IMG/VR virus record: IMGVR_UViG_2913152634_000006
Reading direction: 5' to 3' (one strand)
Length of the DNA: 39,545 nt
Origin: a virus
Lineage: Duplodnaviria; Heunggongvirae; Uroviricota; Caudoviricetes
A program made the translations under genes and the position numbers. Positions 2,289 to 39,545 of this stretch are shown here, in pieces; position 1 is the first letter of the stretch, and the number at the start of each line of letters is the position of its first letter. The notes beneath the pieces were generated by a model that made no database searches, had not been told where the DNA came from, and was given only the letters and a program-made list of their open reading frames with translations.

Positions 2289-2630
2289 ATGAAACAGCAA
2301 CGTAATTCACGCTTTCGCAATGGTGCAGAACGCCACGCTAACCGTTTTGCTACCAGTGCATCACGCAGCAACATCCGCTACAGCCTGAGTGATACACACG
2401 CAACGCCGGATGGCTACCCAGTAAAACAAATCGGCGAGCATGCCTGGCTGATTGAGAAAGCTGGAATCGTGATCCACAAATGCCCACGCAATCCGTTTAC
2501 CGGAAACCGCATTTTTGCTCTAAGCAGTGGCGACAATCAGTTCGGGCAGGATTTCACATTATACGAAGCACTTCGCACGGTTGATCGTCTGCTTCGCGGG
2601 CAAAGTTTTATTAAACAGGCTGATTTATAA
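2289..2630 (+). CDS. Hypothetical early protein
   Basis: 113-aa ORF, ATG 1 nt after the stop of a possible 35-codon upstream ORF; no family recognised with confidence. Confidence 0.5.
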   Translation: MKQQRNSRFRNGAERHANRFATSASRSNIRYSLSDTHATPDGYPVKQIGEHAWLIEKAGIVIHKCPRNPFTGNRIFALSSGDNQFGQDFTLYEALRTVDRLLRGQSFIKQADL

Positions 2631-2640
2631 CAGGTGCTTT

Positions 2641-2928
2641 ATGACCAAAGACCATGCACAAGGTGTATTTATCCGTTTTATTGATTTTCGCGGTGAATTG
2701 TTATTACGTGCATCCGCTATTGACGGAGTGACTCCGGCGGGTAAAAACGGAGCCGACGAAGCCACTTACGTTTATCTGAACGGCACGCGACTGCTTGTGG
2801 AACTTCCGTACCAGACCGTACGAGAAATCATTAGCGAAGCTGAAAAGGCACGCCAGGTTAATGGCGATGAACCCTATATCGAAATTATTTGTATGGATTC
2901 AGAAGCTGAAATACAGAAAGCAGATTAA
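2641..2928 (+). CDS. Hypothetical early protein
   Basis: In-frame ATG at 2641 preceded by GGTG (MTKDHAQGVFIRF...); the ORF-track start at 2527 would overlap the upstream gene by about 100 nt, so the shorter form is preferred. Confidence 0.5.
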   Translation: MTKDHAQGVFIRFIDFRGELLLRASAIDGVTPAGKNGADEATYVYLNGTRLLVELPYQTVREIISEAEKARQVNGDEPYIEIICMDSEAEIQKAD

Positions 2929-2939
2929 AGGGCGTTGTG

Positions 2940-3182
2940 ATGGGCAAAGAATATAAAACTCTCATTAACAAAGCACTTGAGCGTTTTTATTTTCGCTTAA
3001 GTGCATCAGGCGCTCATGCTGAACGTGCGGCCCGTGACTCATTGACCAGAGCAATCCGAAGTCTGTATGACGTGGCTTTTTACGCTGATGATCTGGATGC
3101 ACTTAACGAACTTTCCGAGCTGATCTGTGCCGCAGAATGCGGGGAACATATTGAACCGTATAAGCTGGGGAATATCGCATGA
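2940..3182 (+). CDS. Hypothetical early protein
   Basis: 80-81-aa ORF (GTG 2937 or ATG 2940), follows the previous gene by 9-12 nt. Confidence 0.5.
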   Translation: MGKEYKTLINKALERFYFRLSASGAHAERAARDSLTRAIRSLYDVAFYADDLDALNELSELICAAECGEHIEPYKLGNIA

Positions 3183-3292
3183 GTATATTTATCTCATGGC
3201 TTGTTCTGATTATTTCGGTGGCCTGCGCTATTGGGATTATGCGAATTATTCATTCAATAAAAAAGATTGAACGCTTTTTCACTGGCGAATAA
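3179..3292 (+). CDS. Possible 37-aa membrane peptide (MSIFISWLVLIISVACAIGIMRIIHSIKKIERFFTGE)
   Basis: ATG overlaps the upstream stop (ATGA); single hydrophobic helix; below the ORF-track size cutoff, found by hand translation. Confidence 0.3.
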   Translation: MSIFISWLVLIISVACAIGIMRIIHSIKKIERFFTGE

Positions 3293-3378
3293 CAGAGCAA
3301 ATAAAACCACAGATTAAATAAGAAAATGTAAAAACAATCCGCATTCGCGGAGGTATTCGCACACGCCAAGGAGGCGTA

Positions 3379-3582
3379 ATGGCAATTAAGCATTTTCCTG
3401 TCGTTCGTTTTACCTCCAGAGGGCGTGAATACGAAGTCGACGAACGCCTGATTACCACAATCGACAAACACCGTTCAGAAAAGGATGCACATCACATCTA
3501 TCTCACTGACGGCACTTACTTCTGCGCCACGAATGTGGTGCGGGTGAACCTTATCCGACAGGTACAGGAGTCACGCAGATGA
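3379..3582 (+). CDS. Hypothetical early protein
   Basis: 67-aa ORF with a strong SD (AAGGAGG) 6 nt upstream of the ATG. Confidence 0.55.
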   Translation: MAIKHFPVVRFTSRGREYEVDERLITTIDKHRSEKDAHHIYLTDGTYFCATNVVRVNLIRQVQESRR

Positions 3583-3824
3583 CCATTCTGGACTATATCG
3601 CCGCCAATCCGGGGTGTAGCGGTGGAGAAATCGCCGCAGCACTGAATACCCCAACCACAGCCATTAATGCGGAGTTACGCCGACTCTGGCGCAGCGGTTC
3701 AGTCATAAGAAAAGAGCGCAAAACAGGCGGTCGCTTTTCTTACCAGATAAACCCGATGCCGTTCGGGTGCGGCAATCCACTTACCAACACGTTTAACCAG
3801 CTACTGAAGGAAGCCAGAGCATGA
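3579..3824 (+). CDS. Putative small winged-helix DNA-binding protein
   Basis: 81-aa ORF, ATGA overlap with the upstream gene; DYIAANPGCSGGEIAAALNTPTTAINAELRRL resembles a winged-HTH recognition unit (motif-level inference only). Confidence 0.5.
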   Translation: MTILDYIAANPGCSGGEIAAALNTPTTAINAELRRLWRSGSVIRKERKTGGRFSYQINPMPFGCGNPLTNTFNQLLKEARA

Positions 3825-35443: not shown

Positions 35444-35704
35444 ATGTTCCGTTGTCCGCTTTGTGGCGCATCTGCCCGTATCCGCACCAGTCGTCCGGAA
35501 AATGATTCAAACACCGTGCGACAAAAGTATTACCAGTGCAACAACCTGGAATGCGGCGTATGCTTCTCAACACTGGAAGCTTTCCATAAATTCACATCGA
35601 AACACGCCTCCGGCGTTCACTCTTCAGAAGGTATCCCGTGGCATGAGCTGCCAGCTTCACACAGGGGAAACAATCAGATGAGTTTGCCTTTACCTCAGAA
35701 TTAA
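35444..35704 (+). CDS. ogr: Late gene transcriptional activator Ogr (zinc finger)
   Basis: MFRCPLCGASARIRTSR...YYQCNNLEC matches the C-x2-C...C-x4-C Ogr/Delta pattern and recalled P2 Ogr N-terminus (MFHCPLC...ARTSR...HQCQNVNC); strong SD AAGGGAGG. Confidence 0.8.
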   Translation: MFRCPLCGASARIRTSRPENDSNTVRQKYYQCNNLECGVCFSTLEAFHKFTSKHASGVHSSEGIPWHELPASHRGNNQMSLPLPQN

Positions 35705-35844: not shown

Positions 35845-36933
35845 TTACCTTCGCAAGTAGAAGGTTAGCGCCTCTCCTCTCAGGAGACAAGCGTTTGTAT
35901 GGGTCCACCACATATTGCAATTTTTATTCTCTTTTAAAATATATTCCACGGGCGTCATTAGTGCGAGCGCCTTGTGGGGTCTTTTGCTGTTATACAGCAC
36001 CAGATATTCCGCCAGCTTCTGGTTAAATAGCGCCAGATCTTCAAAGAGTAAAATCTCATTAAATTCAATAAACTGCTCTCTTAACGTCCGGTTAAAACGT
36101 TCACAGATAGCGTTCATTTTTGGCGTGTAGGGATAGGTCCAGAGGTGTTTGATAGCGGCTTCCTGCAGCGTTTTGTCGAAGTTTCCCAGGAACTCTTTTC
36201 CGTTATCTGTGATTATCTGGCTGATACCGACCGGGAACAACCGGGCTGCGCGGCTGAAGAAGTGATTGACGATATCACTGTTGAGTGACGGCACAGCCAG
36301 TGCCAGCGCGTAATTGCTGCATTCGTCGATCATGGTGATGACATAGCGACGCAGTTCGCCCATTCTGAGCTCAATGGCGTCCATCCCAATGAGCTCACCT
36401 GTCTTTACCGGGCGGTAGTGCTTTGGCCTGCGGGGTTTGGCAGACCGCTTTTTGACAAGCAGTGCCTTCCCCCGCGATCCCAGACGCACAGGTATCATCC
36501 GCATTTTATCATGTGCGGCAGCGATCATTCTGCCGATGGTGGAAACACTCGGACAGGCCAGATAGCGCTGTTCGCACCAGGGCTTCAGGCGAACAAAAAT
36601 CTGCTCTTTACCGAGGTTCGGCAGCTCTGTCCTGAGGCGTCGAATCTCTTTCAGCACATCGGGATGCCAGTGTTTTTTTCGTCGCACCAGAGGTGCCTTA
36701 CTGTGCGGGATTAGCCCCTCAGGTCCTTCCTTGTTCAGTAACTGACGCCACCAGTAAAGCGTGCGGCAGGACACGCCAAAGGCTTCAGAAGCTGCAGAAA
36801 TACCGTGTTTATCCCAGAAGTGCAGAGCCTTCATTCTCATTGTTGCTATATCAGCCATCACTGAAAGCCTCAACGCATAATCGGCCGTTTGGTAGTACTT
36901 AGGATAGCCAACCATCAGATGCTGCATTTGCAT
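35845..36933 (-). CDS. IS-element DDE transposase (rve integrase-core type, single ORF)
   Basis: 362 aa; N-terminal HTH-like segment (MKALHFWDKHGIS...CRTLYWWRQ), DDE-type core with ITDNGKEF; the real start is probably an internal Met (MADIATMRMK...); IS family and ends not determined. Confidence 0.7.
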   Translation of the reverse strand: MQMQHLMVGYPKYYQTADYALRLSVMADIATMRMKALHFWDKHGISAASEAFGVSCRTLYWWRQLLNKEGPEGLIPHSKAPLVRRKKHWHPDVLKEIRRLRTELPNLGKEQIFVRLKPWCEQRYLACPSVSTIGRMIAAAHDKMRMIPVRLGSRGKALLVKKRSAKPRRPKHYRPVKTGELIGMDAIELRMGELRRYVITMIDECSNYALALAVPSLNSDIVNHFFSRAARLFPVGISQIITDNGKEFLGNFDKTLQEAAIKHLWTYPYTPKMNAICERFNRTLREQFIEFNEILLFEDLALFNQKLAEYLVLYNSKRPHKALALMTPVEYILKENKNCNMWWTHTNACLLRGEALTFYLRR

Positions 36934-37225
36934 AGTGCAATCTCCCCTTACTTATCCGGAGGCAATTGCAATATCTCTGTGAACTTACACAGCGTTATGA
37001 CGCAAATTCCGTTAAAAACCCTGTTACTTTGCATAACTGCGGTAGCGATAATCTGGATCCTCCACACATCACCGTGCGAGTTACGATTCAGGTTTGCTGG
37101 CACGGAAATTGCGGCATTCTTACTATGTAATAAGTAAGATAACCGCGACGGGGGAGTAATCCCCCGTCAATCGGTTGCTAAGGTTGGTCGAAACGGCACC
37201 CTATCTCACAGACATGAACAACAAA

Positions 37226-37257
37226 CCCGCAGCGTAAAAACTGCGGGTTTTCTTTTT
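37226..37257 (+). terminator. Rho-independent terminator (CCCGCAG-cgtaaaaa-CTGCGGG + ttttcttttt)
   Basis: 7-bp GC-rich stem with a 10-nt T-rich tract read directly; lies between the IS and the com-methyltransferase cassette. Confidence 0.5.
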
Positions 37258-37304
37258 GGTGCCCTCACAAATGAGGGCACCATACATAAGCAATAGGCAT
37301 AACA

Positions 37305-37339
37305 GATCGATGCAATAAATCCGATCGATAAAAACGATC
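37305..37339. promoter_or_regulatory. Cluster of three GATCGAT repeats (three Dam GATC sites within 35 bp) upstream of the com-like gene
   Basis: GATC at 37305, 37323 and 37336, each within aGATCGATg / cGATCGATa / cGATCGATt; lies 50-80 bp upstream of the com start. Confidence 0.4.
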
Positions 37340-37386
37340 GATTTGTTATCATATCGGCAGCAGTAACCACACAAGAGGTGCCGCAA

Positions 37387-37584
37387 ATGACGCAAAATGT
37401 ACGATGCAAAAATTGCAACAAACTACTTGCCCGCGCCTCATTTCACTACATTGAAATAAAATGTCCGCGCTGCAAAACACTTAACCAGATAACGAGAGCC
37501 ATCGAGCACCCCACACACATGAGGAGTTATGACCGTGGGGATCGCAATCCAGCACCAACCAGCACATACACCGGAACACACTAA
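37387..37584 (+). CDS. Com-like zinc-finger translational regulator
   Basis: MTQNVRCKNCNKLLARASFHYIEIKCPRCKTLNQI resembles recalled Mu Com (MKSIRCKNCNKLLF...HIEIRCPRCK); ATG 37387 sits 7 nt after AGAGGTG; 3' end overlaps the downstream methyltransferase by 56 nt. Confidence 0.7.
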   Translation: MTQNVRCKNCNKLLARASFHYIEIKCPRCKTLNQITRAIEHPTHMRSYDRGDRNPAPTSTYTGTH

Positions 37585-38320
37585 GGTTTATCAGACTGAC
37601 AATGCCACGCTCTGTCGTGGGAATGCGCTGGAAATATTGCCGCTGATTGAGCCAGAAAGCATTGATGCCTTAATCACTGACCCGCCTTACAGTTCGGGTG
37701 CGACACACAAGGCCGGACGCACCAACCAGGGCAGCCATGCAAAATATCTGAACGGCGAGAACCTTCACCGCTTTGATGGGTTCGCGGGTGAAAACATGGA
37801 CGCCCGTTCGTGGGCTTACTGGACACAATTATGGATGGCACAGGCACACCGCGCAGTCAGGCCGGGCGGTTATGCCCTGGTATTTACTGACTGGCGACAA
37901 CTACCAGCTTTAACCGATGCGTTTCAGGCCAGTGGCTTTACATGGCGCGGCATCATTGCGTGGAACAAAGGGAGGGGGTCACGAACACCACATACCGGGT
38001 ATTTCCGGCATCAGTGCGAATACATCGTCTGGGGCAGCAAAGGCCATTTAGATAAATCGCCTTCGGGACCGTTCGACGGCTGCATGACGTTCCCGGTTAT
38101 CTCGTCAAAGAAAATGCACCCGACCGGAAAACCAGAAGAACTAATGGCGGAACTGGTCAGGACTGTGAATAGTGGCGGAACAGTCCTTGATCCTTTTATG
38201 GGGTCAGGGACAACGGGTGTGGCTGCACTGAAAGCAGGACGCAAATTTATTGGTATAGAAACCAGTGATCATTATTTTGATGTAGCAACACAACGGCTCA
38301 AAACGGCGATCGAACCATAA
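37529..38320 (+). CDS. DNA methyltransferase, beta-class N6-adenine/N4-cytosine type (DPPY before FxGxG)
   Basis: 263 aa; catalytic ALITDPPYSS near the N-terminus and SAM-binding VLDPFMGSGTTGVAA near the C-terminus (circularly permuted beta-class order); SD GAGGAG 2 nt upstream of the ATG; start overlaps the com-like gene. Confidence 0.85.
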   Translation: MTVGIAIQHQPAHTPEHTKVYQTDNATLCRGNALEILPLIEPESIDALITDPPYSSGATHKAGRTNQGSHAKYLNGENLHRFDGFAGENMDARSWAYWTQLWMAQAHRAVRPGGYALVFTDWRQLPALTDAFQASGFTWRGIIAWNKGRGSRTPHTGYFRHQCEYIVWGSKGHLDKSPSGPFDGCMTFPVISSKKMHPTGKPEELMAELVRTVNSGGTVLDPFMGSGTTGVAALKAGRKFIGIETSDHYFDVATQRLKTAIEP

Positions 38321-38364
38321 GAGTAAGCCCGCAATGTTGCGGGCTTACTCTACCTCTCGAAAAT

Positions 38365-38386
38365 GTGGTCACTGCGTGGACATACG
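38365..38386. repeat. Candidate att core, right copy (attR)
   Basis: Direct imperfect repeat of positions 12-35; lies between the last prophage-associated gene and the putative host gene. Confidence 0.35.
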
Positions 38387-38549
38387 CTGATACAAATCCT
38401 TTTATATCAATAAATTAAATCTTTGTTTTTTTCATCAACAAGGATTTTCACGTTTGTGTTACCTGTATGAGACGAGAGTTAACCAGACAAGTGTGCCATA
38501 ATCTCGCGGCCAGGCATACTTGCGAAGATTTCAGGTATAAGGATACGTA

Positions 38550-39545
38550 ATGATACAACCTATTTCCGGCCCTCCTCCTGGGCAACCACCAGGTCAGGGA
38601 GATAACCTGCCGTCTGGCGCGGGCAATCAGCCTTTATCCAGTCAGCAACGTACTTCGCTGGAAAGCTTAATGACGAAAGTGACCTCACTGACGCAACAAC
38701 AAAGAGCAGAACTGTGGGCGGGTATCAGGCACGATATTGGTCTATCGGGAGATTCACCGCTGCTTTCGCGTCACTTCCCTGCCGCTGAGCATAATCTGGC
38801 GCAACGTCTGTTGGCCGCGCAAAAAAGCCATTCTGCCCGCCAGCTTTTAGCGCAATTAGGGGAGTATTTACGTCTGGGGAATAATCGTCAGGCGGTCACG
38901 GAGTATATCCGTCATAACTTTGGTCAGACGCCGCTGAATCAGCTCTCACCGGAGCAATTAAAAACCATTCTCACCCTGTTGCAGGAAGGGAAAATGGTTA
39001 TTCCGCAACCACAGCAGCGCGAGGCAACCGACCGTCCTTTATTACCGGCGGAGCACAATGCGCTCAAACAGCTGGTGACCAAACTTGCGGCGGCAACGGG
39101 GGAACCCAGCAAACAGATCTGGCAATCGATGCTGGAACTTTCCGGGGTGAAAGATGGCGAGTTAATTCCAGCGAAACTGTTTAACCATCTGGTGACCTGG
39201 CTACAGGCGCGTCAGACGCTAAGCCAGCAAAATACGCCGACACTGGAATCACTACAGATGGCGCTAAAACAACCTTTAGATGCCAGTGAACTGGCGGCGT
39301 TATCGGCATATATCCAGCAAAAATATGGCCTTTCTGCGCAATCATCGCTTTCTTCTTCCCAGGCCGAGGATATTCTTAACCAGCTTTATCAACGGCGGGT
39401 TAAAGGGATTGATCCGCGTGATATGCAACCGCTGCTTAATCCTTTTCCACCGATGATGGACACGTTGCAAAATATAGCAACGCGTCCCGCGCTGTGGATA
39501 CTGTTAGTCGCGATTATCCTGATGCTGGTCTGGCTGGTTCGTTAA
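38550..39545 (+). CDS. flk: Probable host gene: Flk-like flagellar regulator with C-terminal membrane anchor
   Basis: 331 aa; Pro/Gln-rich N-terminus (MIQPISGPPPGQPPGQ) and C-terminal hydrophobic anchor (ALWILLVAIILMLVWLV); recalled match to enterobacterial Flk in length and architecture; lies outside the candidate attR. Confidence 0.5.
   Translation: MIQPISGPPPGQPPGQGDNLPSGAGNQPLSSQQRTSLESLMTKVTSLTQQQRAELWAGIRHDIGLSGDSPLLSRHFPAAEHNLAQRLLAAQKSHSARQLLAQLGEYLRLGNNRQAVTEYIRHNFGQTPLNQLSPEQLKTILTLLQEGKMVIPQPQQREATDRPLLPAEHNALKQLVTKLAAATGEPSKQIWQSMLELSGVKDGELIPAKLFNHLVTWLQARQTLSQQNTPTLESLQMALKQPLDASELAALSAYIQQKYGLSAQSSLSSSQAEDILNQLYQRRVKGIDPRDMQPLLNPFPPMMDTLQNIATRPALWILLVAIILMLVWLVR

Follow-up and report, generated by a model that had tools for sequence, protein, structure and literature searches.

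The window analysed here (the whole 39,545-nucleotide stretch of IMG/VR record IMGVR_UViG_2913152634_000006) is an essentially complete P2-like prophage of Escherichia coli. The last 1.1 kb of the prophage is a two-gene unit in which com, encoding a small zinc-finger protein, overlaps the start of an orphan DNA methyltransferase gene. The host gene flk starts at 38550, which agrees with the placing of this unit near the right attachment site, attR, by a first-pass annotation made from the sequence alone. The genes and predicted control elements of the unit, in window coordinates, are the following:

37293-37342, no strand assigned: OxyR-type block containing three Dam sites, each within a GATCGAT heptamer (37305-37311, 37323-37329 and 37336-37342)
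37325-37352, plus strand: predicted sigma-70 promoter, with -35 TCGATA (37325-37330), a 16-bp spacer and an extended -10, TGtTATCAT (37344-37352)
37387-37584, plus strand: com, from ATG 37387 to a stop codon ending at 37584; 65 amino acids with a CCCC zinc finger
37496-37509, plus strand: predicted Com target hairpin, GAGC-CAUCGA-GCAC, with the motif CC(N)3GAG at 37499-37506
37509-37540, plus strand: translation-inhibition hairpin directly 3′ of the Com hairpin, in which CCCCAC pairs with GUGGGG, plus an inner stem
37529-38320, plus strand: orphan beta-class N6-adenine/N4-cytosine DNA methyltransferase, 263 amino acids from ATG 37529 or 261 amino acids from GTG 37535

Profile searches identify the 65-residue protein, previously noted only as Com-like, as a true member of the Com family: the Pfam profile PF10122 (Zn_ribbon_Com) recognises it with 44.6 bits, where the cut-off is 22.9 (E 9.5e-12), and PHROG 13819, "gpCom control of modification", does so at 2e-17. 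Over its zinc-finger part (residues 3-43) it is 59.5% identical to phage Mu Com, and the zinc cysteines C7, C10, C26 and C29 (CxxC...CxxC) are invariant in that alignment. The ribosome-binding site of com, AAGAGGTG, lies at 37373-37380, six bases upstream of its ATG. Mu Com is an RNA-binding translational activator whose RNA motif, CC(N)2-3GAG, was defined by systematic evolution of ligands by exponential enrichment (SELEX) and footprinting (PMC6483171), and we predict the same activity for the protein studied here.

The overlapping gene matches PF01555, N6_N4_Mtase, at 116 bits, and its DPPY motif (residues 51-54) lies N-terminal to an FxGxG motif (DPFMGSG) situated close to the C-terminus, the motif order of the beta class. 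The earlier assignment to the beta class on the strength of these two motifs thus stands, as does the statement that the enzyme is not Mom: the Mom payloads of sister loci score 261 bits on a different family, PF25680. Relatives with solved structures include adenine methyltransferases named "DpnA" (5hek, 5hfj) and CcrM, which are beta-class enzymes, and PADLOC places the protein in its Type II methyltransferase class. No restriction endonuclease gene adjoins the methyltransferase, whose neighbours are com upstream and the host gene flk downstream, and PADLOC gives no match for Com; a restriction-modification or other defence system was ruled out on these grounds.

The two genes overlap by 56 nt, the figure given in the first-pass annotation, if the methyltransferase begins at ATG 37529, and by 50 nt if it begins at GTG 37535. 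We consider GUG 37535 the probable start because it corresponds in the alignment to the GUG at which Mu mom begins, and because its spacing from the ribosome-binding site GAGGAG is 8 nt, versus only 2 nt for the ATG. Database entries for this methyltransferase vary in their start, with lengths of 261, 263, 266 and 268 amino acids, and the 261-residue forms use the GUG. One of two annotation changes that we suggest is therefore to move the methyltransferase start to GUG 37535, as a probable assignment.

A four-way alignment of the window with Mu, Escherichia phage Chuche and a Mu-like element holds through com and the sequence GAGCA(C/U)CCCAC as far as GUGGG(G), which contains the GUG start of Mu mom, and the alignment with Mu collapses right after that point. 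By this alignment, the control region is homologous to that of Mu com-mom rather than convergent with it. The shared features are a Com zinc finger, a com gene that overlaps the payload start, a CC(N)3GAG hairpin 5′ of the hairpin that holds the start, a GUG at the aligned position, and three GATC sites at the identical 18- and 13-bp spacing, embedded in a 42-bp block that is ~71% identical without gaps. The differences are that Mu carries Mom (PF25680) where this locus carries a PF01555 enzyme, that the host element is Mu-like in one case and P2-like in the other, and that the last GATC lies 78 bp from com in Mu but 51 bp here (27 bp closer). In addition, the C-activator dyad, T-run and Pmom core are found in Mu only, whereas here a sigma-70-like promoter overlaps the GATC sites. 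The first-pass annotation had proposed a mom-style circuit around a different enzyme and a comparison with Mu; that proposal is supported in silico, and the relationship goes beyond the mere similarity it described to homology at the DNA level, extending from the GATC block to the start codon.

Upstream of com, the three GATCGAT heptamers are found at distances of 82, 64 and 51 bp, matching the earlier report of three copies 50-80 bp upstream, and they are the only copies on either strand of the window. The chance that three random placements fall within 38 bp is ~3 x (38/39545)^2, or roughly 3e-6. GATC itself is depleted rather than enriched across the window, with 101 sites versus 142 ± 12 expected (100 of 100 shuffles contained at least 101). 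When a 37-bp OxyR tetrad consensus was scored at all positions on both strands of the whole window, the two top matches (15/20, at 37293 and 37302) both fell on the GATC block, where matches occur in registers 37293, 37302 and 37306; the same scoring gives 13 for the known Mu site and 14 for agn43. The GATC sites of agn43 are spaced 19 and 13 bp apart, and its core, cGATCG-N8-GATCGAT, is nearly the same. In P22 gtr each OxyR half-site contains a 13-bp GATC pair (PMC2909390), and such a pair within an OxyR half-site has been validated as the mark of the switches at mom, agn43 and gtr (PMC2909390, PMC3378877).

The predicted promoter, TCGATA-16-TGtTATCAT, is the sole promoter-like site in 36900-38560, with transcription expected to start at ~37359. 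GATC sites 2 and 3, 13 bp apart in ATCGaTaaaAaCGAT, overlap its -35 and spacer respectively, so bound OxyR would be expected to occlude it directly. The -10 hexamer is unchanged in 31 distinct P2-type sequences, deletion variants included, and in Citrobacter-type loci a TATACT lies at an equal distance from GATC site 3. The C-dependent promoter of Mu is weak and consists of a TTAT-N6-ATAA dyad, which is visible in the Mu sequence, together with a T-run and a 19-bp spacer. The T-run and Pmom core are absent from the alignment of Mu with the P2-type control region, and upstream of com there is no P2 Ogr late-promoter site (TGT-N12-ACA), the lone nearby match lying inside com. From its sequence, the promoter appears to have been rebuilt in the P2-type cassette. 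The nine bases TAACCACAC (37364-37372), 15 nt upstream of the com ATG, are identical to part of the -35/C-site region of Mu Pmom (AATAACCACAC); we treat them as probably a relic of a Mu-type promoter, because if they served as a -35, transcription would start within com.

The stem pairs of the Com hairpin covary over 31 distinct Com hairpins drawn from five payload clusters (four enzyme families). The closing C-G was fixed by the search motif and only the three varying pairs were tested (GC/AU/GU, UA/GC/CG and GC/AU/GU); the observed level of pairing was attained in 0 of 2000 permutations. The adjoining inhibition hairpin encloses GAGGAG (37521-37526), AUG 37529 and GUG 37535, and is predicted to be stable at -13.2 kcal/mol (z -2.5, matched by 3 of 200 shuffles), compared with -9.0 for the Mu hairpin. 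The probability of an unpaired start codon is at most 0.005 for AUG 37529 and GUG 37535 alike. The first-pass annotation had recommended looking for an occluding hairpin at 37500-37560, and the hairpin predicted there does pair both the ribosome-binding site and the candidate starts. Its CCCCAC/GUGGGG arms are unchanged in the 31 P2-type variants and align with CCCAC/GUGGG of the Mu hairpin.

A second hairpin holding the start codon or the ribosome-binding site, with differing stem sequences, is found in enterobacterial, Haemophilus, Acinetobacter and Desulfovibrio examples. One Desulfovibrio metagenome-assembled genome (L011, ~1580-1650) has an independent pairing of Com with a beta-class methyltransferase, in which the 3′ half of the Com hairpin shares bases with the 5′ arm (GAGCACC) of the inhibitory hairpin. 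The two structures are therefore mutually exclusive there, making a clearer switch than at the enterobacterial loci. No Rfam family reached threshold in 36800-38500.

Com homologues are followed by members of four families of DNA-modification enzyme, counted here as distinct downstream variants:

Mom (PF25680): 26
beta-class methyltransferase (PF01555): 26
Dam-like/D12 methyltransferase (PF02086): 12, plus 9 of the Hia5 type
C5 cytosine methyltransferase (PF00145): 8

In Sp18-type Mu-like elements the payload is Mom in some cases and a C5 methyltransferase in others, with Com, the hairpin and the first few codons the same in both. Because Com is linked to all four families, and these are swapped behind the same Com and hairpin, the comparison suggests that the cassette is a portable controller for DNA-modification enzymes. 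Read in this way, the control logic of Mu mom moves as a unit comprising the Dam/OxyR site, Com, the Com hairpin and the start-codon hairpin, and is re-used before unrelated DNA-modification enzymes, with the swap junction just past the start codon. The loci in which Com is followed by a C5 cytosine methyltransferase (L003, at 2501-3707, L007 and L086-L090) are Mu-like elements inserted in Shiga toxin (Stx) phages and Citrobacter-type elements; they share the inhibitory hairpin and GUG start, and related Sp18-type elements carry Mom with a near-identical Com and hairpin.

We compared Com control regions taken from genomes and viral contigs, 89 distinct ones in all. The numbers with a 13- or 18-bp GATC pair, by group, were as follows:

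P2-type loci: 20 of 25
Sp18-type Mu-like elements: 15 of 15
Citrobacter-type loci: 6 of 6
Mu-type loci: 12 of 12
distant (non-enterobacterial) loci: 0 of 31

In all, the pair is present in 53 of 58 distinct enterobacterial Com loci. Among the P2-type sequences, the payload is more variable than the non-coding stretches that control it: 6 of 44 columns are variable between the -10 and the com ribosome-binding site, 6 of 55 across the Com and inhibitory hairpins, and 7 of 50 by substitution in the OxyR/GATC block (setting the 31-bp deletion described below aside), compared with 256 of 835 in the payload.

Taken together, these observations make it probable that com and the orphan methyltransferase form a self-contained two-gene cargo operon controlled by a cassette that shares an ancestor with the Mu com-mom control region. 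In the mechanism that we propose, transcription would begin at the sigma-70-like promoter overlapping the OxyR-type site and its three Dam (GATC) sites. OxyR would bind when these sites are unmethylated or hemimethylated, blocking the promoter, and full Dam methylation would release it. On the resulting transcript com would be translated freely, while the methyltransferase ribosome-binding site and start would be locked in the hairpin. Com is predicted to bind the CC(N)3GAG hairpin, which abuts the base of the inhibition hairpin and partly competes with it, thereby opening the latter so that the methyltransferase could be made, probably from GUG 37535. The enzyme would then methylate phage and host DNA, most plausibly shielding progeny DNA from restriction in the next host.

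Several observations weigh against this mechanism or parts of it. The predicted promoter is a consensus match alone, and no copy of the Mu C-activator dyad TTAT-N6-ATAA was found at one mismatch or fewer in 37256-37386; because this activator site is absent, transcription probably does not follow exactly the logic seen in Mu. The Com hairpin contains an internal A.A mismatch and, at -0.5 kcal/mol on its own, is barely stable. The wider 91-nt fold is unremarkable (z -1.7), only the isolated inhibition hairpin being significant, and the -13 to +3 window of the methyltransferase is mid-ranked in accessibility relative to 39 prophage gene starts, a crude ranking given that start calling for the control genes was itself crude. 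Finally, 5 of the 25 distinct P2-type control regions have no intact GATC triad: four (L006 and L059-L061) have a 31-bp deletion, and L040 has lost GATC site 2. The existence of such variants implies that the Dam/OxyR gate is dispensable. The deletion, ~60-90 nt upstream of com, joins GATCGAT repeats 1 and 3, so that the OxyR-like site is lost and TAGGCA comes to lie 16 bp upstream of TATCAT; in L059-L061 the surviving GATC has also been changed to AATC.

The persistence of these variants bears on the possibility that control by Com and the hairpin works as proposed while the GATC/OxyR block is an inherited relic, the operon being constitutive or driven by a phage factor. Loss of the Mu C site and Pmom core points the same way, since with them the original regulatory context has been lost. 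All the same, 20 of 25 distinct P2-type variants keep the whole triad, its 31-bp core shows just three point changes, the 13-bp pair has been retained in three otherwise diverged lineages, and the block overlaps the sole promoter-like site, so that we regard a relic as unlikely.

The IS10 transposase promoter is a case in which Dam methylation acts directly, and the overlap of GATC site 2 with the predicted -35 and the position of site 3 within the spacer would also suit a model in which OxyR plays no part and Dam methylation alters the binding of RNA polymerase or SeqA at these elements, coupling expression to replication or hemimethylation. We consider this quite unlikely, because the block is homologous to the stretch that OxyR binds in Mu, is close to the OxyR site of agn43, and is the best match to the OxyR tetrad in the window.

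That Com is a DNA-binding transcription factor here, rather than acting on RNA, seems very improbable: the sole point in its favour is the product name given below, against which Mu Com acts on RNA as a translational activator (PMC6483171) and the Com RNA motif and adjoining inhibitory hairpin are conserved and covarying. The NCBI Prokaryotic Genome Annotation Pipeline (PGAP) names the product "Com family DNA-binding transcriptional regulator", whereas Mu Com, which has been characterised, binds RNA and activates translation, and the other annotation change that we suggest is to rename Com accordingly.

Returning to a cassette predicted to be gated by Dam and OxyR and then by Com, the loss of the C-dependent promoter of Mu, together with an OxyR/Dam site that, as in agn43 and gtr, lies on a stand-alone sigma-70-like promoter, raises the tentative possibility that the operon is an epigenetic ON/OFF switch in lysogens, with the methyltransferase varying in phase through Dam and OxyR and not through repeat slippage. 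Such a switch would produce mixed methylomes within a clonal population, and the ON state would reinforce itself if the operon's own GATCGAT sites were also among the enzyme's targets. More generally, control of the proposed kind might be a reason for a prophage methyltransferase carried by ~3% of complete E. coli genomes to appear silent or heterogeneous in methylome surveys. The agn43 switch of E. coli and the gtr switch of P22 and Salmonella differ in that they control surface antigens and have proven phase variation, whereas the cargo here is a methyltransferase with an extra, predicted translational lock.

The layout has precedents: Com paired with a methyltransferase has already been described in both Mu-like and P2-like phages (PMC3299994, PMC3091744). 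In the Mu-like group, a methyltransferase occupies the mom position behind Com in B3 (ORF47/48), FluMu (HI1522.1/HI1523), Pnm1 (NMA1821) and the Hia5 case, with predicted Com sites included in the published account (PMC3299994); at the 5′ end of the methyltransferase in these prophages a Com site and inhibitory hairpin are predicted. Those enzymes belong, unlike ours, to the D12/Dam-like family (PF02086) and have been shown to possess almost no specificity (PMC3299994), and the upstream GATC triad is absent there. In the Burkholderia P2-like phage KS5, gp21 (Com, as a table annotation) overlaps gp20, an N-4/N-6 methylase (PF01555) (PMC3091744); its Com is only ~34% identical to the one described here, and its module is placed among the tail genes and not at the attachment site. 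Smp131 and Ralstonia P2-like phages, found among the search matches, have the same Com/methyltransferase pairing as KS5. Closest of all, phage Chuche (PP925824) and PGAP-annotated prophages of E. coli and Salmonella carry the same module at 94.5-100% identity, annotated as gpCom or "Com family" plus DNA methyltransferase.

The module occurs in 171 of 5426 complete E. coli genomes (~3%) and is widespread in public protein collections. It is thus a common addition to the known Com-controlled DNA-modification modules, of a kind that is already annotated. We found no paper on the GATC/OxyR block, Com site, inhibitory hairpin, expression or specificity of the P2-type module, and nothing specific in the literature on its methylome motif or phase variation. 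What the present comparison adds is modest: a predicted Dam/OxyR site kept outside the Mu context, and a promoter that has apparently been rebuilt.

The features that surround the unit at the prophage's right end are the following:

35444-35704: Ogr/Delta zinc-finger late activator
35845-36933, minus strand: IS481-family transposase gene (NCBIfam, 221 bits, just below the cut-off of 224)
36997-37137, plus strand: hok/mok-like type I toxin open reading frame of 46 amino acids (PHROG 251, "MokW-like host killing")
37223-37258, plus strand: intrinsic terminator with a 10-bp stem, an 8-nt loop and a T-run (terminator scan)
38322-38351, plus strand: perfect 13-bp hairpin, read from the sequence, directly after the methyltransferase stop and without a T-run

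A Hok/Gef gene is annotated at the same place in sister prophages, directly upstream of the com operon. The terminator at 37223-37258, which the first-pass annotation had described as insulating the unit, is real (10-bp stem at 37223-37250, T-run) but belongs to the hok-like gene: it ends the upstream hok/mok-like transcript and insulates the com operon. The hairpin at 38322-38351 received no terminator call in the scan; it is likely to mark the end of the operon at the prophage-host junction.

Collinearity with the sister prophages L004 and L001, in which ogr and hok are only ~190 bp apart, is broken by a 1.2-kb stretch (35894-37102) that holds the IS481-family transposase gene and may have changed the 5′ region of hok. 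After the hok terminator, and before the OxyR-like block, lies a perfect 10-4-10 inverted repeat, GGTGCCCTCAcaaaTGAGGGCACC (37258-37281), with no T-run after it. Of 31 distinct P2-type sequences, 24 keep the repeat and show some compensatory changes in it, and in the other seven, phage Chuche among them, a 15-nt deletion removes it.

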